Virus genome (UHGV): UHGV-2031204 | Length of the DNA stretch: 64,000 bases | Source: a virus | Reading direction: 5' to 3' (one strand) | Part shown: positions 1,912-59,492 of the stretch, piece after piece | Numbering within the stretch: position 1 is the first letter of the stretch | Layout: each line of letters starts with the position of its first letter | The notes under the pieces: model-generated | Databases searched by the model: none | The model's input: the letters and a program-made list of their open reading frames with translations, nothing else | What the model was told of the DNA's origin: nothing | Translations under genes and position numbers: made by a program

Positions 1912-1920
1912 GGCTAAGCA

Positions 1921-25930: not shown

Positions 25931-25953
25931 ACGGATAGATATTATCCTAGTGA
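25931..25953 (+). promoter_or_regulatory. conserved promoter-like element (GATA/TATC inverted-repeat core)
   Basis: ACGGATAGATATTATCCTAGTGA in divergent intergenic region, 30 nt upstream of ATG 25984. Confidence 0.55.
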
Positions 25954-29672: not shown

Positions 29673-29748
29673 GGGGGTGTAGCACAATTGGTAGTGCAGC
29701 GGTCTCCAAAACCGAAGGTTGGGAGTTCGAAACTTCCCGCCCCCGCCA
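29673..29748 (+). tRNA. tRNA-Trp (anticodon CCA)
   Basis: 76-nt cloverleaf read by hand: acceptor GGGGGTG/CGCCCCC, D-arm GCAC-AATTGGTA-GTGC, anticodon loop CTCCAAA, T-arm GGGAG-TTCGAAA-CTTCC, discriminator G, encoded CCA; very similar to E. coli tRNA-Trp. Confidence 0.85.
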
Positions 29749-33910: not shown

Positions 33911-33930
33911 TATAGATATTATCTTAATGA
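33911..33930 (+). promoter_or_regulatory. conserved promoter-like element
   Basis: TATAGATATTATCTTAATGA in divergent intergenic region, 27 nt upstream of ATG 33958. Confidence 0.55.
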
Positions 33931-41646: not shown

Positions 41647-41696
41647 GACTTACTCCTTGGGGTTACACATAGGAAACGGTCACAGTCTCACTCACA

Positions 41697-41731
41697 TTGA
41701 AAAATATCTGAGAAAGATATTATCTATGTGA
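41697..41731 (+). promoter_or_regulatory. conserved promoter-like element, extended copy 1 of 2
   Basis: TTGAAAAATATCTGAGAAAGATATTATCTATGTGA in divergent intergenic region. Confidence 0.55.
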
Positions 41732-41776
41732 TGGTTCGGTAGTTAATCATTTTAAGCTATGTGTGTTTTACGTGTA

Positions 41777-41811
41777 TTCTAAAATATCTTAGCTAGATAT
41801 TATCTACGTGA
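41777..41811 (+). promoter_or_regulatory. conserved promoter-like element, extended copy 2 of 2
   Basis: TTCTAAAATATCTTAGCTAGATATTATCTACGTGA, 43 nt upstream of ATG 41855. Confidence 0.55.
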
Positions 41812-41854
41812 ACCAACACTACAATTGTATTAAACCTTATAAGGATTAAGTAAA

Positions 41855-43702: not shown

Positions 43703-43731
43703 TAAGTTGGTAAGTAGTAAGCAGTAGTTGA

Positions 43732-43774
43732 GGGACAGGGGAAAACCCCCTGTCCCTTCCCTCTCTTTTTTTGT
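43732..43774 (+). terminator. strong intrinsic terminator after the codon-optimised 615-aa gene
   Basis: GGGACAGGGGGAAAACCCCCTGTCCC hairpin followed by TTCCCTCTCTTTTTTTG. Confidence 0.85.
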
Positions 43775-43786
43775 TGAGGATTCGGC

Positions 43787-45394
43787 GTGGAACATAAACT
43801 AGAATATTACGGGATTTCGGGGCGACTAATTAGTCACGACAAGATGTTACGTGACTGTATACAAGAAGCGGAGGAAAAAGGCTACAAACCACCGATTATT
43901 ATCAATGACGTTGCTGCAACGATGGATACCATCGAAGCGTCGGAGATGATTAACCAAATACTCCAAAACCGAATCGTTGATGAAACACTCAACTCGGCTC
44001 CTATTTGCAGTCTGACCTGCGAATCACCTATTACCCATCGTTATAATCTTGGGCTACGTTGCCCACATTGCGGACATGTTGTTTCTGAACATCGGATTAC
44101 GTCCGATGTCTGGTTACGCGCCCCCGATGAGATGGGTAACTTTATCAATCCACGTTTTTGGTCTCTCTTTAATGCCTTCTTTGGCTCTAAGCTGAAAAAA
44201 TTTAATCGTAACAAAGTGACGGTAGAGCGCGGGTCTGATTTACTGCTGTGGCTAATCGATCCGTACTACCATCCAGAAAAGGACGAAGGAACACGTGCTC
44301 GCGTGGTGAAAAGAATACTCGGCGAACATGGCTTCGAACGGGGAATTCGAAACTTTATCGACCACCATCGAACCGTCTTTAATATCCTTACGTCCCCGGA
44401 AGCTTGGAAGGAGATTTATCCGCCAACGAAAAATAACCGTTATGAGAGTGAGCGCGTACGCTTAGAATGGCGTGAGTTCTTTCAGGAACAATCGTTCTCA
44501 TTCTTTCCAAGACACCTTCCGATTATTTCATCAAAACTGATCGTTACGGAGGAACGTCGACAAGGTATTTTTATCGATCCGGTTTATACCAGCGCTATCG
44601 ACGCAGTAAAAAATGTGGCGTTGTTGTACACGAATGCACGTCGTATCGAACCACGATTTATTATTCGTCGCGCAATCAAAGCGAATCGACAGCTTGCGTA
44701 TTTCTATATTGACCATCGTCAGGAAGTGATGGAAGGTAAACCTGGGTTCTATCGGGCAAAACTCGGGTCAACACACGTACCGTGGGGCGGACGTGTGACT
44801 ATCTCTCCTATCTCTGAACCTCACGATGCGTTGAAAGTTATTGCGCCTTGGCGTTGGTTGGTTCCGTTGGCGAGTGTTCACATCGAGAACAAGTTAGGTC
44901 GTCGTGATTATACACCTCGACAATGTGAGCGCATTATTGCATTTGCGGCAATGCAGTATGTACCGCTGGTACATGAAATTATTAATGAGTTGATTAAAGA
45001 ATCCCCCGGCGGATTCGGCTTAATGTTGGAAGTTCTGCGTAACCCAACATTGGTTCAACTTTCTATTCAGACATTGTTCATCTCAGCGGTACTGACAGAT
45101 GTAACACAATGTTCTCTGCGTATTTCTGATCGTGTCATCAAAGCGCCTAACGCTGATTTCGATGGCGACCAGTTACAATGCAGATTGGCAATCGACCAGA
45201 TTGAAATGGAACTGGGCATGGCTTATCGCCCAGACAACGGGTTTATGTCAAGCACGAATGTGGACGAGGTTTCGAGTTGTATGATTCTCCATAACGAGAA
45301 TATCAGCAACATAAACAGTTTCTTCCAGGATACTGAAGAGGACTTGGAAGCCGGTATCGCGCTTGACTCTGAATTATTAAAATTGGCGGGGTAA
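43787..45394 (+). CDS. multisubunit RNA polymerase beta-prime subunit, N-terminal module
   Basis: Canonical APNADFDGDQLQ catalytic motif near the C-terminus; Cys cluster CSLTCE...CPHCGH (zinc-binding-like); GTG start. Confidence 0.85.
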   Translation: MEHKLEYYGISGRLISHDKMLRDCIQEAEEKGYKPPIIINDVAATMDTIEASEMINQILQNRIVDETLNSAPICSLTCESPITHRYNLGLRCPHCGHVVSEHRITSDVWLRAPDEMGNFINPRFWSLFNAFFGSKLKKFNRNKVTVERGSDLLLWLIDPYYHPEKDEGTRARVVKRILGEHGFERGIRNFIDHHRTVFNILTSPEAWKEIYPPTKNNRYESERVRLEWREFFQEQSFSFFPRHLPIISSKLIVTEERRQGIFIDPVYTSAIDAVKNVALLYTNARRIEPRFIIRRAIKANRQLAYFYIDHRQEVMEGKPGFYRAKLGSTHVPWGGRVTISPISEPHDALKVIAPWRWLVPLASVHIENKLGRRDYTPRQCERIIAFAAMQYVPLVHEIINELIKESPGGFGLMLEVLRNPTLVQLSIQTLFISAVLTDVTQCSLRISDRVIKAPNADFDGDQLQCRLAIDQIEMELGMAYRPDNGFMSSTNVDEVSSCMILHNENISNINSFFQDTEEDLEAGIALDSELLKLAG

Positions 45395-45400
45395 TGAAAC

Positions 45401-45988
45401 ATGGGCATGTGGAACTTAGGCGGAACCATCTGGACGCGACAAACTGAAAATAGCGGGATGTATCGCTATTTCAGAGACAATTTCGATATTAACGCCTTTG
45501 CTCCCGACATGATCGAAAGCGTTAAACGAAAATGTAATGAGTTAATTTCATTAGAGCGTTTCCGTGAGATGTATGCAGCCGCACGCAAAGTACAGCACAG
45601 CGATGCGACTGACGTTGTACGACAATTGGAGAAGATAGGACAATTCCAGTTTGCAAACGCAACTTTACAGCCGTTGCTGATGGCATTGCCAGAATATCGA
45701 CAATTGTACAATAACAACATGGCGACCGGTTACGAGAACGGGTATTCGAAAATCGATAACTTCCGTGGTTCGGCGTATATGCATACGGACGATAACTTCC
45801 GCGAAGTAACGTCGGGTATGTCCAACGAGTACGATGAAGATCGTATTTGGAACTGGGTATCCAACGAAGATCGATCCAACAAACTCACGCGTGTAGAGCA
45901 AGTTGACATGCAAATCAACTGGGCACGTATGCGGAGTTTTGATTGGGAAGACGAAGATCCGTGTTCTGAACTCGGCGCTTCGTGTTAA
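45401..45988 (+). CDS. hypothetical protein
   Basis: 195-aa ORF starting 6 nt after the RNAP gene; terminator follows. Confidence 0.65.
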   Translation: MGMWNLGGTIWTRQTENSGMYRYFRDNFDINAFAPDMIESVKRKCNELISLERFREMYAAARKVQHSDATDVVRQLEKIGQFQFANATLQPLLMALPEYRQLYNNNMATGYENGYSKIDNFRGSAYMHTDDNFREVTSGMSNEYDEDRIWNWVSNEDRSNKLTRVEQVDMQINWARMRSFDWEDEDPCSELGASC

Positions 45989-45995
45989 TCGAAAA

Positions 45996-46026
45996 GAAGG
46001 GGATTGGGCACCCCCTTCTTTTTTCT
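45996..46026 (+). terminator. intrinsic terminator
   Basis: GAAGGGGATTGGGCACCCCCTTC hairpin followed by T-run. Confidence 0.8.
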
Positions 46027-46065
46027 TATTTACAGCAGCAGCTATCAATGTGATAGGAGTAGAGA

Positions 46066-46449
46066 ATGGCGATTGCAGTAGGCACGGTTTCTACACGCGG
46101 CTGGGCAAAAACTCCCCGTGAACGTATTCGTGAGATGATGAATCATTACACGGAAGCGGGGTATAGCCAATCGCAAATTTATCAAGGCAATGTCCGGTCA
46201 CTTGCGAAAGCAAAGCAAATGTTTGCTCAAGATCCCGACGGCTTAGCCAATCGGGTGAAAACAGACTTAACCACGCTTTACGAACATATTTTTCCTGAGG
46301 GGGTTGAAGTAGAGACAACCTGGGAATATTTGCCGGATACCGATGTACGCTACCGTATCATCATTCAAGCTCGCGTTATGTCGGGTGGGGTGTGGTATGA
46401 TGTGGAACGTTACGTTGAAACTGAATCATCAGTCATTGAGGATGAGTAA
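46066..46449 (+). CDS. hypothetical protein
   Basis: 127-aa ORF with AGGAGTAGAG RBS. Confidence 0.65.
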   Translation: MAIAVGTVSTRGWAKTPRERIREMMNHYTEAGYSQSQIYQGNVRSLAKAKQMFAQDPDGLANRVKTDLTTLYEHIFPEGVEVETTWEYLPDTDVRYRIIIQARVMSGGVWYDVERYVETESSVIEDE

Positions 46450-46451
46450 GG

Positions 46452-47120
46452 ATGGATCAAGAACCGGGAAAATTTAATGGTGTACCCATTGAAGAACTTT
46501 CTGGCCGTGCTAAGTTTGAGTTTGAGAAACTTCTTGAAATGGAAGAGATGCTTAAACAGGGCCAGGGTGTGTGCAGCGTGTTTACTGAATCGATGTTCCG
46601 TCGACAAGGTTTGCCGTTGTTGTCGGGGATGTTGGACGGTACGTTTAACGAAGATACCTGGACGGATTATGTAGGTAGTGCTTTCGTTCCGTTACAGATT
46701 GTTTCGGATTCGGATAATTCAAAACTACTCTTTACGATCCCGCCTCTGCTTAATACTGGTCGGTCACTCCAACACGTCGATGGCCAACCGTCGCTCACTG
46801 AAGAAACAGAGATGATTCGGCAACAAGCCGATATCATTTCCGAGGTCGGTGAACGGCAGATGTATCAGATGATCGACTATACGTTGGACGGTATCGAACA
46901 GTTGTCGTACGAAGAAAATGCACTTCGTGCGAAACAGACTATCGATCTGTTAAACTGGATCTTCCGTCGTTATAACGTGTCAGGACAATTACCTTATCCT
47001 GAAGGACTTGAAGAATTGTGCAATCGTATCCAGGGACAAAAGAAACCTATAACGGCGGCACAACCTGAACAGTCCTCCCCTGCTAAGGGAAGAAGAATCA
47101 TCGATGAAGAGGATTACTAA
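46452..47120 (+). CDS. hypothetical protein
   Basis: 222-aa ORF with AGGATGAGTAAGG upstream. Confidence 0.65.
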   Translation: MDQEPGKFNGVPIEELSGRAKFEFEKLLEMEEMLKQGQGVCSVFTESMFRRQGLPLLSGMLDGTFNEDTWTDYVGSAFVPLQIVSDSDNSKLLFTIPPLLNTGRSLQHVDGQPSLTEETEMIRQQADIISEVGERQMYQMIDYTLDGIEQLSYEENALRAKQTIDLLNWIFRRYNVSGQLPYPEGLEELCNRIQGQKKPITAAQPEQSSPAKGRRIIDEEDY

Positions 47121-48252
47121 TCCGCCACCGAAACCAGTTGGCGTTAAGCGCATTTTCTCAACGGGCGATGTACATTTATTGCACCGTCGTGTACCGACGT
47201 GGCATATTGTTAACGTGCTCAAGGAAACCTTAGAACGGTTCGATAATACGATTGACGCTATTTATATAGCTGGTGATTTATTTGATGATTCCCGGCATTT
47301 GCGGCAAGAAGATTCTCAGGAAGCCATAGGGTTTTTAACTTGGTTATTGCTCTGGGCCAAACAGACGAATACTGCTATTCGTGTCTTGGAAGGAACACCC
47401 TCCCACGATCACAAACAATCGAAAATCGTCGAAGAGTTAAATCAGGCGGTGGGTGCAGATTGTTTGTATCTGGATAAGATTGGCGTGTTTTACGACGAGG
47501 CGTTAGAAGCGACAGTCGGTTGGGTCCAGGACGAGTATAAAGCCCTGGGTTCCGAATCCATTGATGCTGCCGCAACAGAACAGGAAATGGCTGAATTATT
47601 AGCCACGCGTGGTATACAGCAGATGGATTTCTGCTTTATGCATGGCTGCTTTCAGTTCCAAGTTCCCGTTGAGTCTACCCGCTTTTTCCATACGGATTTT
47701 TGGGAACCGTTAGTCAAGCATTTGATTATCATCCATCACGATCATCGTAGGAAACAATTGGGTAAGATTCGTGTACCAGGCAGCCCTGATCGCCTGGCAA
47801 TGGGTGAAGAAGAGGACAAAGGCTTTGCTATTGTCGATTTCACTCCTGATTTAGCCAGAGATTATTTCTTGGTTAATGAACGCGCTTGCCCGCAGATTAA
47901 AATTGCTGCGGAGGAGGACTATGAATCGCAGTACGCGAAATGTCTCTCTGCGCTTGAGTACATCGATACTCATCCGTCCTCAGTGATAGGACGATTGGAA
48001 ATTGAATATTACCCTGATTCTCCATTGGCGGAAGCCATCACTCGTTGGAAATCACAATATTCATTCCATATTTCAGGTACGCGTATACGTACGCCTGAAG
48101 AGGAGCAAATTCTCGCAGCCGGTTTTGCCATCGACGCAGAGGTCGAGGAAACCATCTCTGAAGAGAATGTTGAAGCGATTTTGTTAGAAGCATTAGTGCC
48201 GTTTAAATACGATGCACAAATTGTCACTGACATTATCAGGAGCATCAAATGA
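47104..48252 (+). CDS. calcineurin-like metallophosphoesterase, Mre11/SbcD-type nuclease candidate
   Basis: Ordered phosphoesterase motifs: STGDVHL (D-x-H), YIAGDLFDD (GDxxD), GTPSHDH (GNHD-like), FMHGCF (His motif). Confidence 0.6.
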   Translation: MKRITNPPPKPVGVKRIFSTGDVHLLHRRVPTWHIVNVLKETLERFDNTIDAIYIAGDLFDDSRHLRQEDSQEAIGFLTWLLLWAKQTNTAIRVLEGTPSHDHKQSKIVEELNQAVGADCLYLDKIGVFYDEALEATVGWVQDEYKALGSESIDAAATEQEMAELLATRGIQQMDFCFMHGCFQFQVPVESTRFFHTDFWEPLVKHLIIIHHDHRRKQLGKIRVPGSPDRLAMGEEEDKGFAIVDFTPDLARDYFLVNERACPQIKIAAEEDYESQYAKCLSALEYIDTHPSSVIGRLEIEYYPDSPLAEAITRWKSQYSFHISGTRIRTPEEEQILAAGFAIDAEVEETISEENVEAILLEALVPFKYDAQIVTDIIRSIK

Positions 48253-49085
48253 CCCCAATCAGTGTTGATCGCACGTTTGGGTTTTATCAAATGTCAATTG
48301 CTACATCGTTGGCTTTTGAAGGGCTTCTCCATGAAGGAGAATATGCCGATTGGAAGGGTCCAGTCCCTATCCACAAGTATCAGGATATTTACCTGAATCT
48401 ACGGACGTTGTTCCGTAACGCGTTTTACGCGTTTGAAACGAATCGTGAACGATTAACACCTGAAGTGTTGCTGGCATCGATTGAAGAAGATATTGCTTCT
48501 ATTAACGCTACCGCGAAAGCGGTAGCGCCTTCGGTGCTATGTGTCCCCTATATCTGTACGTATAAAAGTGCGAACAGAATCTTCCCCGAAGCAGCGTTCC
48601 GTACGATTGCGGGAGGGCAGGAAAAGATGACACCTAACCAGCACCACTTTAATGCGTTAGAACATGATACGTTAAAGTTATACGGTGAAAAATACCCTGA
48701 GCAATTCAAAAGCTTTGATGTGTTTCCGAAAGGGCAGCATGACACATTGATTTTAACCCATTACCCCGCCGATCTGTTGGCCTACAAAGATTTCCCGCTG
48801 TTGAATCTGTTAGAATCACACACGGGCAAGATTAAAGGTCGGTTAGAATGGTACACGAAGCTTTACGGTAAACCCGAACAGATCCCGTTTAACAAGGCGT
48901 TTCTAACGCTATTTGGCGATGGGTATATGTTCTCCCCACTTGACAGAAAGGTTCGTAAGGTGGTGTTGAATACCGCCGAGAAATACCACTGGCGACAAGA
49001 TACGACCATGGATCGTATTTACAGTTGCTTGAAGTTGGTTAACGAGCCCTTTGTCATTGAGTTCCTTCGTAGATTGTCTCGCTAA
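48249..49085 (+). CDS. hypothetical protein
   Basis: 278-aa ORF, ATGA overlap with the upstream gene. Confidence 0.65.
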   Translation: MTPISVDRTFGFYQMSIATSLAFEGLLHEGEYADWKGPVPIHKYQDIYLNLRTLFRNAFYAFETNRERLTPEVLLASIEEDIASINATAKAVAPSVLCVPYICTYKSANRIFPEAAFRTIAGGQEKMTPNQHHFNALEHDTLKLYGEKYPEQFKSFDVFPKGQHDTLILTHYPADLLAYKDFPLLNLLESHTGKIKGRLEWYTKLYGKPEQIPFNKAFLTLFGDGYMFSPLDRKVRKVVLNTAEKYHWRQDTTMDRIYSCLKLVNEPFVIEFLRRLSR

Positions 49086-49143
49086 TTTTACAGATCGTTT
49101 TGTTAGTTTGAGCACTCCGAAAATGTAAAAATAGGATAAGTAA

Positions 49144-49788
49144 ATGGTCAATAAAAACTTCCTTAAAGAGAAATGGCTTTACCCGCAGACTGAGCCGGAT
49201 CAACAGGGCCGTACTCGTAAACTGGGCATTGAATTGAACGAGTTCAATGGTGATGTGGAACTGATGAAATTCCACTATTCCTTTGGTAAAGGCGAAGGTC
49301 TTTATTTCACCGCAGGCTATACTGTCTGTGTTGATATCTTTGAAACCCTGCGTACGGTGATGCAGAAACCCGAAAAAGTTGTTTTCAAATGGGAAGATAC
49401 AAAAGGTAAGAAGGCACCGGTTAGCTTACACGTAGGTCGTGATGAAAATCTGACACCGTTCTTTGCACTGAGCGGTGAGATCCCAGGGGTTGGTGCGCGT
49501 CAGAAGAAATTCTATTTCACCTATCCGAAAGGTTATCGTGTTTTCCGTAATGGACAACTGGTCTCCGATCTGGAACTGGCAGAGCGTCAGCTACGCGCGT
49601 TCCTGAAAAATGCAGATGTATTCCTGGAAGATTTCCGTGACAACTACAAACCGCGTGAGTTTAATAATGCGGCTGGTGGTAGTTACGGTCGCGGCGGTTA
49701 CAATAACGGCGGCAACGGCGGCGGTTATAACAACCAATCTGCCGCAAAAGCCCCAACACCAACTAACGATTTTGACGATATTATCTAA
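49144..49788 (+). CDS. single-stranded-DNA-binding-protein-like protein (Gly/Tyr/Asn-rich linker plus acidic tip)
   Basis: C-terminus GGSYGRGGYNNGGNGGGYNNQ...PTNDFDDII resembles the SSB glycine-rich linker and acidic DFDDDIPF tip; host-optimal codon usage; N-terminal fold not assessable. Confidence 0.45.
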   Translation: MVNKNFLKEKWLYPQTEPDQQGRTRKLGIELNEFNGDVELMKFHYSFGKGEGLYFTAGYTVCVDIFETLRTVMQKPEKVVFKWEDTKGKKAPVSLHVGRDENLTPFFALSGEIPGVGARQKKFYFTYPKGYRVFRNGQLVSDLELAERQLRAFLKNADVFLEDFRDNYKPREFNNAAGGSYGRGGYNNGGNGGGYNNQSAAKAPTPTNDFDDII

Positions 49789-49808
49789 ATAATGTAAAAC
49801 TATAACAT

Positions 49809-49837
49809 AGCCCCAGGATATCCTGGGGCTCTTTATC
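49809..49837 (+). terminator. intrinsic terminator candidate after the SSB-like gene
   Basis: AGCCCCAGGATATCCTGGGGCT hairpin followed by CTTTATC. Confidence 0.6.
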
Positions 49838-49860
49838 GTGTATGTGTGTAGAATACAGTC

Positions 49861-49893
49861 GAAGTTATCTGAGATAGATTTTATCTTAGTGGA
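49861..49893 (+). promoter_or_regulatory. conserved promoter-like element
   Basis: GAAGTTATCTGAGATAGATTTTATCTTAGTGGA, 28 nt upstream of ATG 49922. Confidence 0.5.
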
Positions 49894-49921
49894 CGACTAT
49901 GTTATTCCTGGAGATTTTAAA

Positions 49922-51550
49922 ATGCGCATTGAAAAGAATCGTGACCGTTTAGTGATAAAGTACGGCGAAAAAGAGGTCGCGTTTAATGGTTTCCGAAATG
50001 GACGTAAAGACGTGAATGTGCCAGACGTACGCGATAGTTTCGGACAGATCGTAACGCACGATAAAATTATGTTCATGGAAATCGAGCGTTATTGGTCAAC
50101 TTTAACACCCGAAGAGAAAAGCGAACTGTTTTCAGTTTACGAAGAATTAGAGTTGTTAGCTAATGAACCCCCAGAAGTTATTCGTGAACACGTCCCCACG
50201 CTCGTCGCGAGAATTGCTAAATTTCATCACGCAGATAGATTCCGCCAGCTTTATCCACACGGTTCGGTGTGGATTCCTCAAAACGTCCACGAAACGTACG
50301 AAGAGATGTCGTCGAATTATCCAAAAGAGATGACGTATATCGTACAAGATTATTACGAATTGGTGATTTTGTCTTTGATGACAAAACCGTTTATTCCCGT
50401 ATTCTTGATTTTGGACGCTTTTCCTGCAACACGTGCTTCTGTTGAGTCGAAGCGCAAAAGTGTTTATAACCTGACCTACTGCATGGAACTGTTGTCCGAT
50501 ACCGAGATTGCTACACTGCCAGCCATTACAAAGTTGCGTGAGTTTTTAGTGTCGGTGATTTCGAAAGTTCAGGACGGGGGGAGTAAAGGACCCAATACTG
50601 CAAACCTTACCGTCCTGGCATCTATCTGTGGCTACGGTACGGATATGGTAGAGGAATACATCATAGCGTTCGCTGTTATCCGATTAATTGCGATGAAGTT
50701 AATCGGTGCCGAACTACCACCAGGTACGATGGTTGAAAACAACATCGTGGCGGGGATGTATTTCAATATTCGACAAGAAATTGAAACGGGCTTCGCGGGA
50801 AAAATTTCCGGTCAAAACGTGATGCTAAAAGCGAATCCTGAGAAAATCATGTTCAACGGCGAGAAGGGGAAAACTTCGTCGATTGACCTGGTTCAAGCTC
50901 GGACTAAAGCACCAATGAAGGAATTCGTTCGTACTCAAGAATTCTTTAATGACTATCGTCGTGCGGTGCGTGCTTTGAATCTCGATATTGCTCCCGCTGA
51001 TGTGAAAGTGTTGATAGATTCCATCAACATTAACCATCAATATCCTTTCTACGAACTCTACGAATGGTTGGTGGCGGCAGTGATGCACCGATTTGCAGAT
51101 CGTCGTACATACAAGGAAATCGACGCAGAAGCGTTTAAGAATGCGATGGGTATATCCCAAGCCGTTTACATCTATTACGGAATGGCTGAGATTGCACAGT
51201 TGTTAAGTTGTGAAATGATCCGGGCACCGCTAAATGGCGGGTATCCCATCGAGCCAATCGATAATGAGATTAAAATAAAAACGGATAGATATTATCCACA
51301 AGCATACCGTAAGCATCGTAATACTTACGAACAATCAACATTGAAGGATTCTCTCAGCTTGTTGGTTCGTGAACATATCGCGCCGTTCAACTTCAATCTC
51401 AGGGCAACACCGGAAGCAGCCAGAATGTTACGGTGTGGGACAGTGATGTTGGACTATTCACCTCATCCGCGACTTCAGAACATGTTAGCAGAATTTCTGT
51501 TAATTCAAAACAGAAAGAAATGCGAAGAAGTAGCATGGTTTAATCAATAA
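49922..51550 (+). CDS. hypothetical protein (early-promoter-motif gene)
   Basis: Start taken at ATG 49922 after GGAG (ORF track starts at 49838 inside the terminator/promoter region); 542 aa. Confidence 0.65.
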   Translation: MRIEKNRDRLVIKYGEKEVAFNGFRNGRKDVNVPDVRDSFGQIVTHDKIMFMEIERYWSTLTPEEKSELFSVYEELELLANEPPEVIREHVPTLVARIAKFHHADRFRQLYPHGSVWIPQNVHETYEEMSSNYPKEMTYIVQDYYELVILSLMTKPFIPVFLILDAFPATRASVESKRKSVYNLTYCMELLSDTEIATLPAITKLREFLVSVISKVQDGGSKGPNTANLTVLASICGYGTDMVEEYIIAFAVIRLIAMKLIGAELPPGTMVENNIVAGMYFNIRQEIETGFAGKISGQNVMLKANPEKIMFNGEKGKTSSIDLVQARTKAPMKEFVRTQEFFNDYRRAVRALNLDIAPADVKVLIDSININHQYPFYELYEWLVAAVMHRFADRRTYKEIDAEAFKNAMGISQAVYIYYGMAEIAQLLSCEMIRAPLNGGYPIEPIDNEIKIKTDRYYPQAYRKHRNTYEQSTLKDSLSLLVREHIAPFNFNLRATPEAARMLRCGTVMLDYSPHPRLQNMLAEFLLIQNRKKCEEVAWFNQ

Positions 51551-51580
51551 TTTTCGGCTTGACCTAAAGGAGCATTTACA

Positions 51581-53287
51581 ATGGCAATGAAACTTTTGAA
51601 ACTACAAATGTATCCAGTGTACGAAATCCCAGAGCAGATTCGTCGTCGCATTGGGTTCTTTGAATCGCAGCACGCTTTGGATGAGTTAGTGGATGTGGTT
51701 GCAGAACACGGTGATAAAGCAACAGGTTCTCGGGCTTATCAAGAAGCCTTGGGGCAGATTGTGGGTTTCGACAACACCCCAACTGGCATTGAACGTCCAT
51801 TCATTAACGTGAGTGATAACGAATCGCAACCAATCCATTTTGCGTATAATTCTCGCGATACTGGTGTGTATAACTTCGTGGCGATTATTGTTTCGAACTC
51901 GTTAAATGACACACGGACTCAAGAAACACGTTATGTTGTTTCCGGGTATACGTCCCAGGCAGAACGATCCATGTTTAATCACCTGCCGGATGACATGGTT
52001 CTGTATATCAACGAAATATACGGGTTACAATGTACGTATATCACCGATGCGTTTGGTGGACGTCGTATCAACCCGGATTCCTTCCGTTTGATAGACAACT
52101 ATGTGTTGTCCAAGACATTAACCGCAGACAGTTATGTAGAGCACACCATTGACGTTATTTCTACCGCGAAAGCAGCTGATATGGTGCGTAAAGTGGTGAA
52201 AGCTGGTGAGCAGATTGAGCTGGATAACAACACTGTTATCTCTGCTAATTGCCAGCGTGCACCACAGTTGATGTCTAGTCAATTAACACGACCAGAATCT
52301 TTCGTGACAGCTATCTCCAATTCCTTCATTAATACCATGGGGATTGAAACGGAGTTGAGTGCAGTGGACAGTTTCTTCGCAGGAGATCATTCTCTTGGGG
52401 TAGAATCTGAACTTAGCCAGATCGGGGTGATGCGTAATTTCAATAGTTACGAATTGGTGAAGGCTTTTAGAACCGCCATATCCAACGCCACGTCCGATAT
52501 GACTAGCGGTTGGAACGTTGCGAACCGTGCAGCATTCAAACTGTGCGACCTGCGTAACGCGGTGATTAATCCCGAAGACGTAGATGCTGCAATTGCGCAC
52601 TCACTGGCTGTCGCAGCCCGTCGCGGTTTTGGTGAAATTGAACGCACCGATGATTGGGTAGGACGTAACAACTATTCTACTCAGGGTTCGTTGGTGGCAT
52701 TTGATTTAGCCATGTTACTGGGGCCTGTGGTCACTCGTAACCTTATCGGCGAAGTGACTTTCTTCTACGATAACCGTATGGCGGATATTGCAACACCTCC
52801 TCTGCTGCAAGTGTCAAAACACAACGTTGGGGCATTAACTGAAGACGGATTACCGGATGTGTTAGCACGTCGCTTCTTAAGTGACTTACAAGGCGTATTC
52901 TTGCAAGTGACTAAACACAACCGTATTCGTTGTAAGATGACCGTAACGTGTATCGTTGGGGTGGTTTCACGTATTGAAATCGAAATCGATGGTGAGCTGC
53001 CTGAGTATTATACTCATGCGTCGTTCATGAAAGCACGTCTGCATTGTGGTACAACGACTGACCTTCAGTACACGAACCAGTTAGCTGCAGAAACAGCGCA
53101 GCTGATGAACAAAGTGGAAGAAGGGTACCAAGAATTCAACCGTGGTCAGAACCGTTCGAATATCCTGTCGAATATTCCAACTGCCCCTGTGTCTGCACCT
53201 ACGAGCCTGGGTAGCTTCGGTAGCTTTGGTGGTGGCGATATGTCAACCTCTGCGCCAGTGTCTGGCTTTGGTGCATTCGGCGAGTAA
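51581..53287 (+). CDS. hypothetical protein with Gly/Phe/Ser-rich C-terminal tail
   Basis: CCTAAAGGAG leader; 568 aa; C-terminus SLGSFGSFGGGDMSTSAPVSGFGAFGE. Confidence 0.7.
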   Translation: MAMKLLKLQMYPVYEIPEQIRRRIGFFESQHALDELVDVVAEHGDKATGSRAYQEALGQIVGFDNTPTGIERPFINVSDNESQPIHFAYNSRDTGVYNFVAIIVSNSLNDTRTQETRYVVSGYTSQAERSMFNHLPDDMVLYINEIYGLQCTYITDAFGGRRINPDSFRLIDNYVLSKTLTADSYVEHTIDVISTAKAADMVRKVVKAGEQIELDNNTVISANCQRAPQLMSSQLTRPESFVTAISNSFINTMGIETELSAVDSFFAGDHSLGVESELSQIGVMRNFNSYELVKAFRTAISNATSDMTSGWNVANRAAFKLCDLRNAVINPEDVDAAIAHSLAVAARRGFGEIERTDDWVGRNNYSTQGSLVAFDLAMLLGPVVTRNLIGEVTFFYDNRMADIATPPLLQVSKHNVGALTEDGLPDVLARRFLSDLQGVFLQVTKHNRIRCKMTVTCIVGVVSRIEIEIDGELPEYYTHASFMKARLHCGTTTDLQYTNQLAAETAQLMNKVEEGYQEFNRGQNRSNILSNIPTAPVSAPTSLGSFGSFGGGDMSTSAPVSGFGAFGE

Positions 53288-53309
53288 AAGATTAATCAAG
53301 GACTCTTAA

Positions 53310-54689
53310 ATGAAAATTATTGAATTCTACAAATCGTTTCTTAAATCACAAGGATTCGATTTTGAAAACGATTTACTCACTCGTGACGGTGGTGAACCGG
53401 CAGAGTTTACGTATAACAAAGTGAAGCGCCGTTTGGCGCTTCCTACCCCAGCGATGATTAAGCGTGGCATGGAAGACGACGATGGTCGTGAATGTCAAGC
53501 ATTTCATCCACTGTGTGAATCGGTACTGGCAGGTGAATCAGGGACAATTCGTTTCCTGAAGAAATCCATTAATGCGAACCTGTTCATTCGTTCCTTTGCA
53601 TTAATCGACGCGATTCTGGAAACGGGGGCAAGTGGTAAAGCAGTACGTTCAGCTTCCTACAAGAAGTTCTTAACAGAACAGATTTGCGAAGGGATGAAAG
53701 ATCCGACGTTCGATGAGCGTTTGGTAAAATCCTGGGAAGCGGTTAAGGCGTTCGTTTACGCACAATTGGAAAAAGATAAAAAGCACAAGATCACCCAGCT
53801 TTTTATCGCATCTGATTTAGTTATCGATGGTGTGAAGTTTAACCGCGTAGCTAATTATCGGAATATGTTCGAAGAAGAATCGTTAGATGGTACCGCAATG
53901 TACTTCTCTGCGAAGCTTCAACGTAAACAAGACAAAATCATTATCCACCGTTTACTGACCACCGTGTTCGGTTGGTATCCGAGCGTAACGGGGTCTAATG
54001 ATTCGCGTCCGTATTTCGGTTGCTTAGCGCGTGGTTGGGCGCAGTACGTTGTGAATTATAACAACGTCGTTAAGGGATTGCGCGACCACACTTCTTTACG
54101 TCCGTTGGAAGATGAATGGATTTCTCAGCTGGACAATATGGATATTTACGATAACGTCATTCAGACCTTACCGTATAACACCGGCCCACGTTCTGACAGC
54201 CCTGAACGTGATACCACGGCGCATGACTTCCGTATTGATCGTGCACAGGCACCGCAGCAGATCCCACAAAAACGTGCATCGGATGCAGATAAAGCAGATA
54301 AGTCCGATCCGATGGAATTCTTCCGCGCTCGTGAACGTAACATGGCCGCGCATAGTCCTTATGGGAATTTGACGCCAGCGATGCAACGTTACGCTGAGCA
54401 GCACGGAACAACTAACCCCGCCAACGGTATGGTAAGTCGAATTTCTGTTGTGGATGCGTTTGGTGGTGAGCGCAAGGTTTCACCTTTCGGTGGTCAGAGT
54501 AACTTCGGTGTAGGGAATACTGGAGGTTCTTTGGCAAGCACCTTTGGCGGAGGGAATAATTCTTTCGGCGGGAATGTAGGGGGGACTAGCGCATTTAGCA
54601 CAAGTTCAGCATTTGCATCGAATAGCAGTTTTGGCGGGCAGCCGCAAAGCAGCTTCGGCGGATTTGCAACTTCGGCATTTACGCGTTAA
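53310..54689 (+). CDS. hypothetical protein with FG/SFGG-repeat C-terminal low-complexity domain
   Basis: 459 aa; last ~90 residues hold about nine xFGG/xFxS repeats (AFGG, PFGG, NFGV, TFGG, SFGG, SFGG, SFGG, GFAT); terminator follows. Confidence 0.7.
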   Translation: MKIIEFYKSFLKSQGFDFENDLLTRDGGEPAEFTYNKVKRRLALPTPAMIKRGMEDDDGRECQAFHPLCESVLAGESGTIRFLKKSINANLFIRSFALIDAILETGASGKAVRSASYKKFLTEQICEGMKDPTFDERLVKSWEAVKAFVYAQLEKDKKHKITQLFIASDLVIDGVKFNRVANYRNMFEEESLDGTAMYFSAKLQRKQDKIIIHRLLTTVFGWYPSVTGSNDSRPYFGCLARGWAQYVVNYNNVVKGLRDHTSLRPLEDEWISQLDNMDIYDNVIQTLPYNTGPRSDSPERDTTAHDFRIDRAQAPQQIPQKRASDADKADKSDPMEFFRARERNMAAHSPYGNLTPAMQRYAEQHGTTNPANGMVSRISVVDAFGGERKVSPFGGQSNFGVGNTGGSLASTFGGGNNSFGGNVGGTSAFSTSSAFASNSSFGGQPQSSFGGFATSAFTR

Positions 54690-54702
54690 GTGAAGTATAA
54701 AA

Positions 54703-54728
54703 GAAGGGACCGTGTCCCTTCTTTTTTT
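54703..54728. terminator. bidirectional intrinsic terminator
   Basis: GAAGGGACCGTGTCCCTTC hairpin followed by T7; between convergent genes. Confidence 0.75.
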
Positions 54729-55050
54729 AATCATTACCGATGGTGCTAATAATCTCACTGACCGTTCCGACGTCGGGTACGATTAGTTGCGTGATTTCAG
54801 GGGTGAAATTCATGGGGTCTTCTAGCCCGTTTAATAGCATCATCGGATAGATAATGATATCGGCGTAACCTTTGAGTTTACAGTAGGCGTAGAAATTGTG
54901 GACCTCAGGCCAACTGTAGCGTGGGTCAACATTTTCTATTTTAGTTTTCGGGTGTTTACGCAGATAGTCTGTGTAATCGTGCATCACTTTCCATGTCGTG
55001 GTGTAAGGCGCAGGTATGAATTCTTCTAGGGTAATAAAATTGTCTAACAT
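54727..55050 (-). CDS. hypothetical protein
   Basis: 107-aa minus-strand ORF between a terminator and a divergent promoter-like motif. Confidence 0.55.
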   Translation of the reverse strand: MLDNFITLEEFIPAPYTTTWKVMHDYTDYLRKHPKTKIENVDPRYSWPEVHNFYAYCKLKGYADIIIYPMMLLNGLEDPMNFTPEITQLIVPDVGTVSEIISTIGND

Positions 55051-55051
55051 A

Positions 55052-55082
55052 ATCGTTCCTAAAATAAGTGAGATAGATATTA
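55052..55082 (+). promoter_or_regulatory. conserved promoter-like element
   Basis: AAAATAAGTGAGATAGATATTATCCTACTGA in divergent intergenic region, 31 nt upstream of ATG 55114. Confidence 0.55.
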
Positions 55083-55113
55083 TCCTACTGAATCAACCTA
55101 AAGGAGCATTAAA

Positions 55114-57351
55114 ATGAAAACGCCAGTAGAGCTAATGAGCAGTGTGGCTGACCGTGAGATTAATATCACCGAAGTATCAGGTGCAAGGGCATCGATGGTA
55201 GGCAACCATATGAAGTCTGCGGTCCCTATCGACAATCCTGAACCATCGCCACATTTTACAGGGGCAGATATAAACTACCACGATTTTCTGTTCAATGACG
55301 TTGTAGAAGATCCCGGTAGCATCTGCCACTATATGACCAAAGACGGTCGTCAGCGCCGCGCGACGTTTACACGTTATGGTCGTCGTGGGGATTCTAAAGC
55401 GTTGGAACATGCTATCTTCTTCCGCCGTGCAGAAATGAAGGGCGGTAAAACCATGATAGATGTGCTGGAGATTAACTTCTATACTAACCACGACAACATC
55501 TTCTCATCTGAGAAACGTGAGTCGATGAAACTGCGTAGTATTTTACGTGGCGAAACCGATCAGTTGGAAAAGGATGAAATCCTTACAACGATGTCGTGTA
55601 TGGTGGAAGGCGAGTACGCCGATAGCGTCGTGTTACCAACCGTTACGATTTCGCATCCTGATATCATCGAGGATTCTTACACCATCTCTGAGTACGCCGC
55701 CCAAAAACTCCACGGTTATGGTTTGAAAATCGTTGAAAAGACGCTACGTGAAGACGAGTTTTTACTGGATACTTACGGTTATATCGATCCGAACGGTAAT
55801 CGCGTCCCACGGTATTTCCCGGATGTGGGGGAGGCTATTCGTGACGATGGGTTGGTCATTGCATCGCGTCGTTTCGATGAGCTTTACGGTGCAATTGATG
55901 CGTCGCTTGGGGAAACCCAACACGTCTCTCCGTTCTTTGATAGTTGCGAATATGTGGATGCCGATCCCGTCCATTATAAAGCACGTCTTGCAGGCGACAA
56001 AGAACTGATGGAACGTAGCGGTACACGTATCGTCGATATCCAGGTGTGGCGTGATGAAACGTCTTGCGCGAATGGTGCTAACAATATTTCTTGTACCGAA
56101 GAGAACAAACGAGAACTGGATAAATACGCATTAGCATTGAAAGACTATTACAATGCCATCGTACGATTCTATTTCTCAATGTCCCGTGACAAAAATATTA
56201 TCTGGTCGCCGAAAGCGTGCGTGTTGTTGGAAAAAGCGTTCGCTTCTGAAACATACGAGGTCTATCACGAGTTTCGTGAAGAGATACGCGTGGTGATTGA
56301 TGAAGCAATTCGTCGTGGTGAATACGGTAAAGAAAATGTCAGTCAGCAGATTCTTTCTAAGTTGACCTCGCCAGTACAACGTGGACTCAGCGATCCCATC
56401 AACACGTATACCATTCGTATTGCTGTTCGTTATCCGATCCCGGTAACGGTGTCGTCTAAGATTACCGACCGCTCGGGTACGAAAGGGATTGTTGGGCGTG
56501 TATTGCCCGTTGAGCAGATGCCGATTAACGAATTCGGTGAACGTGTTCACGTTTTACGTTCGATGAACGCTGTAATTCGTCGCTCGACTTATGCAGCATT
56601 ATTCCACATGTATTGGTCAGCTGCGTCTGAACAGTTGAAAATGCGTCTTAAACCATTGCTGGATGAAGGACGTATCAGCGAGAGCTGGGAAATCCTGATG
56701 GATTATCTATCACGCTATAATCCAGAATGGGCCAATACACTACAGGCAACGCATCCTACGGAGGATTTACAACGCGAACTTTTCAAAGAGATTTACGATT
56801 TTACAATCCGTATTTACTTACCACATGAACTTGACGACACGCCAGTCGATATCAGTGAACGGTTGGGTGAATTTAAACCGCGTAAATCCAAACTCCTGAT
56901 TACTAATTTCGATGGTAAACAGGAATGGACAAAAAATGAGTTTTACGTAGGTGGTGTGGAAACATTACGTCTGGATAAAACAGGTCGTGAGTTTTCCAGC
57001 ATCTCGTCAATGTATCTGAATTATCTGGGTACGATAGATGCGTCTAACCAAGGCCGTGGTTCGTATCCGATAAACTATAAAACGCTAAAATGGGCTGGTC
57101 CTTCGGAAGAACGACTGTTAGCGGGTTATGGTCCAGGTAACTACGAAGAAGTTCACGACAGGGCAAATAACCCTGCGGTGCATCGTGAGATTTTAGTAGG
57201 GCTTTATCGATCTCAAACCCCGTCTAATCCGGGTCCACTGGTAGACCGGAATAAATTCCCGTTAGGGGATTCACAGATTGACAGGATGATGAAAAACATC
57301 CACAGCTGTGAAGGGTTTGAATTGGTGAAAATGAAAAGGGGCGATGAATAA
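55114..57351 (+). CDS. multisubunit RNA polymerase beta subunit, C-terminal module
   Basis: DRSGTKGIVGRVLPVEQMPINEFGERVHVLRSMNAV aligns with beta [41 protein letters not shown]; downstream GRGSY...LLAGYGPG resembles RSTGSYS...EAYGAA; CCTAAAGGAG leader and promoter-like motif. Confidence 0.8.
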   Translation: MKTPVELMSSVADREINITEVSGARASMVGNHMKSAVPIDNPEPSPHFTGADINYHDFLFNDVVEDPGSICHYMTKDGRQRRATFTRYGRRGDSKALEHAIFFRRAEMKGGKTMIDVLEINFYTNHDNIFSSEKRESMKLRSILRGETDQLEKDEILTTMSCMVEGEYADSVVLPTVTISHPDIIEDSYTISEYAAQKLHGYGLKIVEKTLREDEFLLDTYGYIDPNGNRVPRYFPDVGEAIRDDGLVIASRRFDELYGAIDASLGETQHVSPFFDSCEYVDADPVHYKARLAGDKELMERSGTRIVDIQVWRDETSCANGANNISCTEENKRELDKYALALKDYYNAIVRFYFSMSRDKNIIWSPKACVLLEKAFASETYEVYHEFREEIRVVIDEAIRRGEYGKENVSQQILSKLTSPVQRGLSDPINTYTIRIAVRYPIPVTVSSKITDRSGTKGIVGRVLPVEQMPINEFGERVHVLRSMNAVIRRSTYAALFHMYWSAASEQLKMRLKPLLDEGRISESWEILMDYLSRYNPEWANTLQATHPTEDLQRELFKEIYDFTIRIYLPHELDDTPVDISERLGEFKPRKSKLLITNFDGKQEWTKNEFYVGGVETLRLDKTGREFSSISSMYLNYLGTIDASNQGRGSYPINYKTLKWAGPSEERLLAGYGPGNYEEVHDRANNPAVHREILVGLYRSQTPSNPGPLVDRNKFPLGDSQIDRMMKNIHSCEGFELVKMKRGDE

Positions 57352-59450
57352 TGAAGGGCACTCCAGTTCACGTGCGTGATCTGTGTAAACTGAACTCGGA
57401 TCAGGTGTGGCTATTGCGCGGCAGATATGAAGTGACGTTCGATGACGGGATAACCTTAAACATGTCAGGACGCCACATTAAAATCAGTTGGCCTTATTGG
57501 GGGCTAACACGATTTTATCCGCAGATCCCAATCAGTTCGCAAATGGCGTATAAACATGGCGACACCGCTACAGATGACGCACATCTGAAGTTTATGTCAT
57601 TGGCAGCTGTGGCAGCACGTAAAGCGGGTGTGGATTTAGCAGATACCCGCTATTTATTGCAGCAGCACGTCTATGCGGATGCGTTTAACTTATCGGTGAA
57701 AAATCTGTTGTCGTATTGTGTCACGATTGACTACGATACGATGATGGAAATTTACCAACACCGAAATTTTACGCAGATTCATCAGTGGGCACAAATGTAT
57801 CCTACTGGGTACGACGAAGAAGGTCGGGATATGATCGAAGAAGCGTATCTTCTTATCGAAGATATCTTCAAAGACCCACAACTTCGTTTAAACCCTGTGG
57901 TGATGTCGGTCTTGGATAAAACCATCAAAATGAACCAGGTTCTCCAGGCGTATATACGCGGGAAAACGTCAGAGATTGATTCTCGCGTTTATTCTAACCA
58001 GGTATGGGAAGGTTTCTTTACGGGCCTACATTCTGTAATTAGCCGTCTGAAAGAAGCGGGAGCGACGTCACGTTCTCACCTGTATAATACCGATAAAATC
58101 GCCGATGCGGAATATGCGTCACGTAAGCTACAGTTAGCAGCCAACGTGTTAATGTATTTCGAATACGACGATTGCGGTACGCATCATGTTCACCGCCACA
58201 CGTTTACAGAAAGTAAACTGGAGCGTAAGAAGTACGATGCGATGGTAGGGATGCGTTATCGTTTTGAAGGCGTGGGAGGCCCGTGGCTACGATTCGAGAA
58301 AGGGGAGTTTGAGAAAGTCTTAGGTAAACCTATTGAGTTTCGTACCGCGATGTGCTGTAAGGGGATGGCACGTCAAAGCATTTGTGCAACGTGCATGGGT
58401 GATTTGATTTATAACCTTTCGCCGGGAACGTCCCCAGGTCACTTGGCTTCAACCTCGATATCTGAAAAGGGTACGCAGGGGATTCTCTCAACGAAGCACT
58501 TGGACTTCTTACGTTATCTGCTGAATCTGGTACTGACTCCGAGAATGCGGGATTATCTTGGGGAGTATAAACACAACTCCGTAAAAGGGTTGAGTTTACG
58601 GGAGAAACCGCAGTACGGTAATTGGGATGAATACCAACTCGTTATTTCTGATGAAGTCTATTCTGAAATCAGCCAAATCGCGTATCATGACGATTTGGAA
58701 GTGATCGACGAAACGGCATTGCCGGAGATTAACGAACTGACCTTTTTGCGGTTGGATGAAGCTGGGAATGTGTTGGCTGAAGATCCCATTGACGTCCGTA
58801 TGGGGGTTTGTGGTAACTTCTCGAAAGCCTTCTTGCATTTCTTCCTGAAACAGCGCGATAACATTACCTTCCCGTCGAAGAAGCTGGTACGGATTCCCCT
58901 GAAAGGATGGAAACCGAGTTGGCCGATACTAATTTATACGAATCGGTCTGAATCTATGGCGGAGTTTGTAGCAGGGTTAGAATTGAAACTTCGTTCGGTT
59001 GCGTCTGATAAATCGGATACTTTCGAACAGTTCTCTGATGACTCAATGCGTTTGAGCAAGAAGTCGGGTAAGGTAAAACCAACGACTCTGGTTCAGATGC
59101 GCGGTGCTACGGAGAAACAATGTACGCACGCGTTATTTGATGTGTTTAAATATATCCAACGTAAGCTCGGTGGTATTCCGATGACACACATCGCGATTAT
59201 GCTGGCGATATCACGCGTTGAATCACCGACCAATCCTTTCCCGGCGGTTGGGTTTGATAGTGAAGATGCTGATGTGATGGATGGCAAACGTTTCGAGGAT
59301 CACAATACGTTGATTGCGATGCGTTCAGCTGTACCGATGTTGTTATTCGAAGGCCAACAGAAAAACCTGGACAACGTGCGTTTCTACACGTCGCGTAAAC
59401 GTCCGGCGTCGTTATACGACAATACGGTGGCCGCGACTATCATTGAGTAA
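57351..59450 (+). CDS. multisubunit RNA polymerase beta-prime subunit, C-terminal module
   Basis: CATCMGDLIYN...SISEKGTQGILSTKHL aligns with beta-prime CAHCYGRDLARG...SIGEPGTQLTMRTFH (trigger-loop region G); start overlaps upstream stop (ATAATG). Confidence 0.8.
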   Translation: MKGTPVHVRDLCKLNSDQVWLLRGRYEVTFDDGITLNMSGRHIKISWPYWGLTRFYPQIPISSQMAYKHGDTATDDAHLKFMSLAAVAARKAGVDLADTRYLLQQHVYADAFNLSVKNLLSYCVTIDYDTMMEIYQHRNFTQIHQWAQMYPTGYDEEGRDMIEEAYLLIEDIFKDPQLRLNPVVMSVLDKTIKMNQVLQAYIRGKTSEIDSRVYSNQVWEGFFTGLHSVISRLKEAGATSRSHLYNTDKIADAEYASRKLQLAANVLMYFEYDDCGTHHVHRHTFTESKLERKKYDAMVGMRYRFEGVGGPWLRFEKGEFEKVLGKPIEFRTAMCCKGMARQSICATCMGDLIYNLSPGTSPGHLASTSISEKGTQGILSTKHLDFLRYLLNLVLTPRMRDYLGEYKHNSVKGLSLREKPQYGNWDEYQLVISDEVYSEISQIAYHDDLEVIDETALPEINELTFLRLDEAGNVLAEDPIDVRMGVCGNFSKAFLHFFLKQRDNITFPSKKLVRIPLKGWKPSWPILIYTNRSESMAEFVAGLELKLRSVASDKSDTFEQFSDDSMRLSKKSGKVKPTTLVQMRGATEKQCTHALFDVFKYIQRKLGGIPMTHIAIMLAISRVESPTNPFPAVGFDSEDADVMDGKRFEDHNTLIAMRSAVPMLLFEGQQKNLDNVRFYTSRKRPASLYDNTVAATIIE

Positions 59451-59452
59451 AC

Positions 59453-59480
59453 GAGAGGGGCCTGCGCCCCTCTTTTTTTG
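59453..59480 (+). terminator. intrinsic terminator after the RNAP beta / beta-prime pair
   Basis: GAGGGGCCTGCGCCCCTC hairpin followed by T7. Confidence 0.8.
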
Positions 59481-59492
59481 TAAGAGGGGAGC

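Follow-up and report, generated by a model that had tools for sequence, protein, structure and literature searches.

The non-virion RNA polymerase (nvRNAP) of phage phiKZ is composed of five polypeptides, namely gp55 (beta'-N), gp71-73 (beta-C), gp74 (beta'-C), gp123 (beta-N), and gp68, the last of which is sigma-like and needed for activity and promoter binding, and the enzyme is rifampicin-independent (Yakunina et al. 2015, PMC4666361; de Martin Garrido et al. 2021, PMC8287921). PhiKZ-like nucleus-forming phages rely on it for the transcription of their middle and late genes. A virion RNA polymerase (vRNAP) comprises gp178, gp149, gp180, and gp80 in phiKZ and gp240, gp241, gp218, gp42, and gp244 in phage SPN3US; of these five SPN3US subunits, gp240 and gp241 are head proteins that are ejected (PMC5694885). 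As of a 2020 review, the vRNAP had remained unpurified (PMC7598289). Against this background, we analyzed a stretch of 64,000 nucleotides from the virus genome UHGV-2031204 (hereafter, the window), in which a first-pass annotation made from the letters alone had flagged three open reading frames (ORFs) between positions 43787 and 59450 as a second, split RNA polymerase (RNAP) set, leaving unspecified which of the two phage enzymes it represents. The flagged genes very probably encode the nvRNAP of a phiKZ-like nucleus-forming jumbo phage, and four of its five polypeptides appear to be encoded within the window.

The comparisons included PHROG profiles, a sequence search against all PDB chains (where 7OGP is the cryo-EM structure of the phiKZ nvRNAP), and tblastn of the flagged proteins against 50,697 phage records. 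The four predicted subunit genes, with their PHROG family and top PDB chain, are as follows:

43787..45394, plus strand: nvRNAP beta'-N, phiKZ gp55 orthologue; 535 amino acids from a GTG start; phrog_2987 (E=1.9e-163); 7ogp_A, PHIKZ055 (E=1.5e-38)
49922..51550, plus strand: nvRNAP sigma-like subunit, phiKZ gp68 orthologue; 542 amino acids from ATG 49922; phrog_3209 (E=1e-153); 7ogp_B (E=4.6e-10)
55114..57351, plus strand: nvRNAP beta-C, phiKZ gp71-73 orthologue; 745 amino acids, uninterrupted; phrog_3295 (E=1.7e-251); 7ogp_C (E=4.2e-29)
57351..59450, plus strand: nvRNAP beta'-C, phiKZ gp74 orthologue; 699 amino acids; phrog_3015 (E=1.1e-223); 7ogp_D, PHIKZ074 (E=8.7e-32, residues 8-684)

The families of all three flagged proteins are described as phage "RNA polymerase beta subunit", and phiKZ gp55, gp68, gp71, gp73, and gp74 were assigned to the same families as the window proteins. 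Behind the phiKZ chains, the nvRNAP chains of phage AR9 were the second-best PDB matches for beta'-N, beta-C, and beta'-C (for beta-C, 7s00_C with E=4.1e-14). By tblastn, each flagged protein matched 256-277 jumbo-phage genomes, and in phiKZ-like genomes these matches fell at the gp55, gp71-73, and gp74 loci, with gp71 and gp73 of phiKZ mapping to separate halves of the window beta-C. The closest relatives were the SPN3US group (Salmonella/Escherichia) and phiEaH2, Stratton, and Asesino (Erwinia), at 66-77% amino acid identity; beta'-N, for example, is 68% identical to SPN3US YP_009153317. Some of the relatives' records, such as those of KTN4 (beta'-N) and RAY, annotate the orthologues explicitly as non-virion RNAP. 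When the proteins were compared with the phiKZ-family subunits, as the first-pass annotation had proposed, the best homologues were the phage nvRNAP and not the virion set, and with nvRNAP chains and families as best matches its placement of a split RNAP in a phiKZ-like jumbo phage was borne out.

The three ORFs are as first described, and the signature motifs NADFDGDQ, GTKG…PVEQMP…SMN, and CATCMGDL…GTQ lie where they had been claimed. In beta'-N, the catalytic, Mg-binding NADFDGDQ occupies residues 455-462 (nucleotides 45149..45172), and NADFDGD is found nowhere else in any of the six reading frames of the window. The beta-C block GTKGIVGRVLPVEQMPINEFGERVHVLRSMN, which holds the GTKG…PVEQMP…SMN signature, spans residues 455-485 (nucleotides 56476..56568). 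Within beta'-C, CATCMGDL lies at nucleotides 58383..58406 and the trigger helix GTQGILSTKH at nucleotides 58470..58499. Alignment with phiKZ gp74, using the residues reported for its Zn site and structural elements (PMC8287921), placed the Zn-ligand cysteines C275, C336, C345, and C348 of the window protein opposite C288, C341, C350, and C353, with the bridge-helix region and the trigger helix likewise kept. The catalytic DFDGD and the GxKG block are conserved in the window subunits, which share their catalytic and structural motifs with phiKZ.

The last A of the beta-C stop codon (TAA, 57349-57351) is also the first base of the beta'-C ATG (57351-57353), giving a TAATG overlap of 1 nucleotide, and a purine run, AAAGGGG, lies about 10 nucleotides upstream of the beta'-C start. 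The same 1-nucleotide overlap is annotated in SPN3US, at 31251. As to the first-pass description of the two genes as translationally coupled, the overlap and the purine run were found, and the arrangement probably couples the translation of beta-C and beta'-C.

A fifth, sigma-like nvRNAP subunit is predicted to be encoded inside the flagged span. A tblastn search of the window with phiKZ gp68 matched the ORF at 49838..51550 (E=1.7e-11), the family phrog_3209 is common to the window protein and to phiKZ gp68 (E=5e-183 for the latter), and the only PDB matches of the window protein were two PHIKZ068 chains, 7ogp_B and 9rjs_B (E=8e-10 for the second). This PDB search returned no match to AR9 gp226, and no Pfam match was found for the gp68-like protein or for the Imp-like proteins described below. 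The window and SPN3US proteins are about 53% identical, and the gene is labelled merely "hypothetical protein" in relatives. Its most likely start is ATG 49922, which is favored because a GGAG and a copy of the promoter motif precede it and because independent gene calls on conspecific contigs gave the same 542 amino acids. The start in the ORF list, GTG 49838, was rejected because it lacks a ribosome-binding site and stands immediately behind the hairpin at 49809..49830.

The remaining subunit, beta-N, was absent from the window when queried with phiKZ gp123 and Stratton gp96 (best E 0.05-0.27). A homologue was found on the IMG/VR contig IMGVR_UViG_3300045988_113438 (220,786 bp), which is 96.6% identical to the window in nucleotides and carries a 100% identical beta'-C. 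It lies 40.8 kb downstream of beta'-C, equivalent to about coordinate 98 kb of the window, and matches 7ogp_E (PHIKZ123) with E=2e-17. Similarly, beta-N in the SPN3US-group genomes lies about 45 kb downstream of beta-C and adjoins the major capsid gene; in phiKZ gp123 is near the major capsid gene, and the beta-N of the window phage likewise. An earlier beta-N candidate was set aside because its contig, at 81% nucleotide identity, represents a sister lineage; the conspecific beta-N is 92% identical to it. Four subunits of the phiKZ nvRNAP (7OGP, 7OGR, 8QUE, 9RJS) thus match the window one-to-one and the fifth is on a conspecific contig. The first-pass annotation had placed all remaining subunits outside the window, which holds for beta-N and fails for the gp68 homologue; its suggestion to look for a beta-N partner and a fifth subunit located both.

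The flagged genes could instead encode the virion-packaged vRNAP that transcribes early genes, given that both enzymes are built from split beta and beta' homologues and that all of them carry the generic annotation "RNA polymerase beta subunit". However, the window holds a separate candidate for that enzyme:

292..1911, plus strand: vRNAP protein, phiKZ gp180/SPN3US gp240-like (tblastn E=5.5e-67)
1921..6087, plus strand: vRNAP protein, phiKZ gp178/SPN3US gp241-like (tblastn E=0)

When the window was searched by tblastn, phiKZ gp178 and gp180, which are annotated as structural head proteins, matched only this pair and none of the flagged genes, whereas gp149 and gp80 matched nothing in the window. 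The pair belongs to phrog_2986 and phrog_3148, neither of its proteins had a Pfam match or a PDB sequence match, and the beta'-N-like protein at 292..1911 bears the variant catalytic sequence GGDYDGDT (1735..1749) and not NADFDGD. In contrast, the flagged proteins match the nvRNAP chains of 7OGP and of AR9 7S00, their locus is collinear with the phiKZ gp55-gp75 nvRNAP region, and the KTN4 and RAY annotations name the non-virion enzyme. A virion role for the flagged genes is consequently extremely unlikely. The first-pass claim of two polymerase sets is thereby substantiated and made specific: the flagged set is the non-virion one and the set at 292..6087 is the virion one.

Two further explanations concern the nature of the sequences. 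Cellular RNAP beta and beta' share with the phage enzyme the double-psi beta-barrel core, DFDGD, GxKG, and the bridge and trigger elements, and the split site of the phage beta' coincides with that of the split beta' of cyanobacteria (PMC7598289). The weak Pfam matches (RNA_pol_Rpb1_2, Rpb2_6, and Rpb1_5, all marginal and two of three under the curated cut-offs) and the PDB matches to bacterial beta at E of about 2e-5 would accord with fragments of rpoB and rpoC on a misassembled or chimeric contig, the outcome that the first-pass annotation had named as the contrary one. Yet beta is also split in the phage enzyme and the cellular similarity is limited to about 75-90 residues: bacterial beta matches only beta-C residues ~430-514, around the catalytic block, with E >= 2.4e-5, and no bacterial beta' matched beta'-N or beta'-C at E <= 1e-3 in the PDB. 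The phage nvRNAP matches, by comparison, span the whole proteins with E values at least 25 orders of magnitude better. Because phage nvRNAP chains are the best PDB matches and independent contigs of 222-225 kb keep the same gene order, we regard the cellular-fragment scenario as excluded, with a vanishingly small residual probability; GC content and GC skew are also continuous across the flagged region. It is, in turn, very unlikely that the genes are genuine nvRNAP homologues that have decayed into non-functional copies. Nothing specific speaks for decay beyond the high divergence from phiKZ, whereas the reading frames are complete and unbroken, no catalytic or structural signature residue has been lost, the exact beta'-C sequence occurs in 203 blocks of a public collection, and orthologues at 53-75% identity across genera conserve the promoters, starts, and gene overlap.

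None of these observations contradicts the assignment of the genes to a phiKZ-like nvRNAP, although it has some limits. The subunits are only 21-27% identical to those of phiKZ that have been studied by experiment, beta-N is known from a 96.6%-identical contig and not from the window's own molecule, and the putative roles of the promoters, the terminators, and the translational coupling rest on sequence and conservation. In addition, the probable identity of the ChmA protein discussed below derives from orthology to the SPN3US ChmA named in the literature, without a match to a solved chimallin.

The locus carrying the proposed nvRNAP genes also holds genes of the phage nucleus, with which the subunit genes are interleaved (chmA and the Imp3-, Imp6-, and Imp1-like genes). 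The following neighbors were recognized:

41855..43702, plus strand: ChmA/chimallin (nuclear shell) orthologue; 50% identity to SPN3US YP_009153316.1
45401..45988, plus strand: Imp3-like, phiKZ gp59 homologue (phmmer E=3.1e-9)
49144..49788, plus strand: Imp6-like, phiKZ gp67 homologue (phrog_3284 for both; phmmer E=4.6e-7)
51581..53287, plus strand: Imp1/PicA-like, phiKZ gp69 homologue (phrog_3141 for both; 56% to SPN3US YP_009153325)
53310..54689, plus strand: phiKZ gp70 homologue (phrog_3520 for both; tblastn E=1.8e-9)
54727..55050, minus strand: gene of 107 amino acids (phrog_3455), between the gp70-like gene and beta-C

SPN3US YP_009153316.1 and YP_009153325 have been given as the SPN3US ChmA and gp69 homologue, respectively (Enustun et al. 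2023, PMC10643120). The Imp names follow 10.1101/2024.03.27.586873, in which Imp3 (gp59) is a nuclear import co-factor, and in phiKZ the nuclear import factor Imp1 (gp69) is needed for nvRNAP import (10.64898/2026.09.21.753271). The window chmA is placed as phiKZ gp54, between the DNA polymerase gene and beta'-N, so that ChmA is directly upstream of beta'-N in both phages. Searches of the window with phiKZ gp54, gp69, gp123, gp149, gp80, and gp82 themselves gave no matches, and the ChmA-like protein matched neither a PDB chain nor, directly, phiKZ gp54; the counterparts of gp69 and gp54 were instead identified from common PHROG families, from synteny, and from published assignments of the SPN3US orthologues.

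At the level of gene order, a 16-gene block (40585..61202) is matched gene for gene, with order and orientation preserved, by SPN3US orthologues of 50-78% amino acid identity, among them YP_009153317, 324, 328, and 329 for the window subunits, and this layout is the same in SPN3US (Seoulvirus) and in phiEaH2, Stratton, and Asesino (Erskinevirus). From beta'-N on (43787..61202), the window is also collinear with phiKZ gp55-gp75, the shared order being gp55…gp65-gp66-gp67-gp68-gp69-gp70-gp71/73-gp74-gp75. SPN3US and the Erskinevirus phages further share with the window the small minus-strand gene, the 1-nucleotide overlap, a GTG-initiated beta'-N after a hairpin, and the GATAGATATTATC sites. The minus-strand gene (64% identity to YP_009153327 in SPN3US, and kept in phiEaH2) replaces what in phiKZ is a small plus-strand ORF between gp70 and beta-C; it has its own AGGA ribosome-binding site and converges on a hairpin that has an A-run on one side and a T-run on the other. 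Another difference from phiKZ lies in gp55 and gp71-73, which are interrupted there by inserts with gp56 (HNH endonuclease) and gp72, whereas the window genes are uninterrupted and no intron was found in them with Rfam. The phiKZ exon boundaries of gp55 (after …KAPNG; 47923..50761) and gp71 (after …TDFHGG; 63275..66595) fall inside the DFDGD and GxKG motifs; since the inserts sit at the catalytic motifs, they target the most conserved sites. The AR9 nvRNAP (PDB 7S00, 7S01, 7UM0) follows the same five-polypeptide logic with the gp68-like gp226, but is much more distant and operates on uracil-containing DNA with template-strand uracil promoters (PMC7598289).

These comparisons place the phage among the nucleus-forming jumbo phages of the Chimalliviridae, in the SPN3US/phiEaH2 clade. 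The divergence from these relatives indicates a distinct species and probably a separate genus within the clade, because amino acid identity is 50-78% and all the nucleotide similarity that megablast could detect in GenBank phages amounts to 932 bases at 77%. The species itself was not found in the GenBank phage set searched. Within the 15.7-kb flagged span, the gp70-like gene alone shows similarity at this level, over two-thirds of its length from the 5' end (53310..54241), with 76.9% to phiEaH2 and Stratton. The independently assembled ENA metagenome contigs of 222-225 kb, with the gene order of the window, are 97.5-98.6% identical to it in nucleotides, and all the contigs read (ENA and IMG/VR) fall within 96.6-98.6%. 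The blocks of the public assembly collection in which the exact beta'-C protein is indexed include 45 with contigs longer than 200 kb, so this looks like a jumbo-phage species of ~223 kb genome size that is common in metagenomes yet undescribed. There are also sister lineages, at about 81% nucleotide identity to the window.

The intergenic regions of the locus harbor a recurrent motif and several hairpins, which we list in the order of their coordinates:

41715..41731, plus strand: early-promoter-like motif upstream of chmA, exact AGATATTATCYWNNTGA
41795..41811, plus strand: second such motif upstream of chmA, exact AGATATTATCYWNNTGA
43730..43772, plus strand: hairpin and T-tract in the chmA/beta'-N gap, 12-bp stem with 8 GC pairs, intrinsic-terminator-like
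49809..49830, plus strand: hairpin ahead of the gp68-like gene
49876..49892, plus strand: near copy of the motif, between this hairpin and the gp68-like gene
54701..54728, no strand assigned: hairpin between an A-run and a T-run after the gp70-like gene, read from the sequence
55075..55091, plus strand: early-promoter-like motif AGATATTATCCTACTGA, exact, 23 nucleotides upstream of the beta-C ATG
59453..59479, plus strand: terminator-like hairpin and T-tract after beta'-C

With up to two mismatches allowed, we counted 10 occurrences of AGATATTATCYWNNTGA in the window, whereas shuffling gave an expectation of 0.37 and none of 100 shuffles reached 10; this over-represented, phage-specific motif can be written as AGATATTATC(C/T)TA..TGA. 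The promoter-like motif that the first-pass annotation had proposed for the beta-C/beta'-C pair is accordingly present as AGATATTATCCTACTGA, and its role would be that of an early promoter. The core GATAGATATTATC is kept at orthologous sites in SPN3US and phiEaH2, where the surrounding intergenic sequence has diverged; these include the two copies upstream of chmA, and the succession of hairpin and motif before the gp68-like gene is kept as well. For RNAP-encoding jumbo phages, a phage-specific AT-rich early motif of ~10 nucleotides near -10, read by the vRNAP, has been reviewed (PMC7598289), and the window motif matches this description; for phiKZ gp54, two transcription start sites have been reported (PMC8244752). 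A host-type (sigma-70) promoter was rejected, as a scan of 41.5-61.4 kb gave 24 sites versus 32.9 expected from shuffles, with none upstream of 55114. The conserved early-promoter-like motifs suggest early expression of the nvRNAP genes. The motif recurs in two further exact copies, at 25937..25953 ahead of the gene that starts at 25984 (phrog_8136) and at 33914..33930 ahead of the one that starts at 34191; these presumably mark other early transcription units.

The beta'-N gene has no motif of its own, and its GTG lies 15 nucleotides past the chmA terminator in all three phages; in SPN3US and phiEaH2 the start is likewise TTGTTGAGG-N6-GTG, behind a conserved hairpin and T-tract. This layout suggests that read-through produces beta'-N in smaller amounts than ChmA. 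The hairpin at 54701..54728 is predicted, from its position, to terminate both the plus-strand operon and the convergent minus-strand gene. Inside the gp68-like coding sequence, a perfect GATAGATATTATC core is present at 51284..51296, ~290 nucleotides upstream of the Imp1-like gene, and its codons GAT AGA TAT TAT (13 nucleotides) recur unchanged at the matching place in both SPN3US and phiEaH2. The arginine codon AGA is rare in enterobacteria. This site may act as an early promoter for imp1 from within the upstream gene. Taken together, a three-part programme controlling stoichiometry, undescribed for the SPN3US clade, can be proposed, which we advance tentatively and hold to be somewhat doubtful as a whole: GATAGATATTATC may be the clade-specific consensus of vRNAP early promoters; the hairpin and T-tract between the highly codon-optimised chmA and the promoterless, GTG-initiated beta'-N may yield a low-level read-through subunit; and the motif copy in the 3' part of the sigma-like gene may drive Imp1 separately.

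By analogy with the work on phiKZ, AR9, and SPN3US, from which the following steps are drawn, the injected vRNAP, partly encoded at 292..6087, would read the AT-rich GATAGATATTATC early promoters and produce hairpin-bounded transcripts for chmA with beta'-N, for the gp68-like/Imp1/gp70 unit, and for the beta-C/beta'-C pair. The phage enzyme is not known to have an alpha or omega partner, and its five polypeptides would assemble without either, with promoter recognition presumably achieved through the gp68-like subunit. The complex would be imported into the ChmA shell via the Imp1 pathway and, once inside, would carry out middle and late transcription of the phage without need of the rifampicin-sensitive host enzyme.

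The nvRNAP is a textbook hallmark of the Chimalliviridae; the novelty is limited to the genome that harbors it, close to Seoulvirus and Erskinevirus, and knowledge of the enzyme mechanism is unchanged. For annotation, four nvRNAP subunit genes are fixed, including one left as a "hypothetical protein" in relatives, one start codon is corrected, and the contig is placed firmly in the nucleus-forming Chimalliviridae beside SPN3US and Erskinevirus. Comparative studies of the nvRNAP and its sigma-like subunit gain a set of divergent sequences free of introns, and GATAGATATTATC is a specific candidate for the promoter read by the virion RNAP.

Some minor observations concern the neighboring sequence and a deposited record. 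On the minus strand, an antisense ORF of 649 amino acids (41846..43795) covers the whole chmA-like gene. It was rejected as a gene, being the in-phase complement of chmA and having no PHROG match. It stays open because chmA uses no TTA, CTA, or TCA codon in its 616 codons (similar-sized neighbor genes use 20-31), and most probably is a side effect of the extreme codon optimisation of a gene expressed at very high levels; local GC content rises up to 50% at chmA. A single tRNA gene, tRNA-Trp (CCA), lies among small ORFs at 29673..29748 and is the sole Rfam match in the window. Finally, for the phiEaH2 beta'-C (198044..200149), GenBank gives the start as 198257, but the tblastn alignment begins at 198044, at the end of beta-C; the deposited protein is probably ~70 codons too short at its start, and the minus-strand ORF of 144 nucleotides annotated in the resulting gap is probably spurious.

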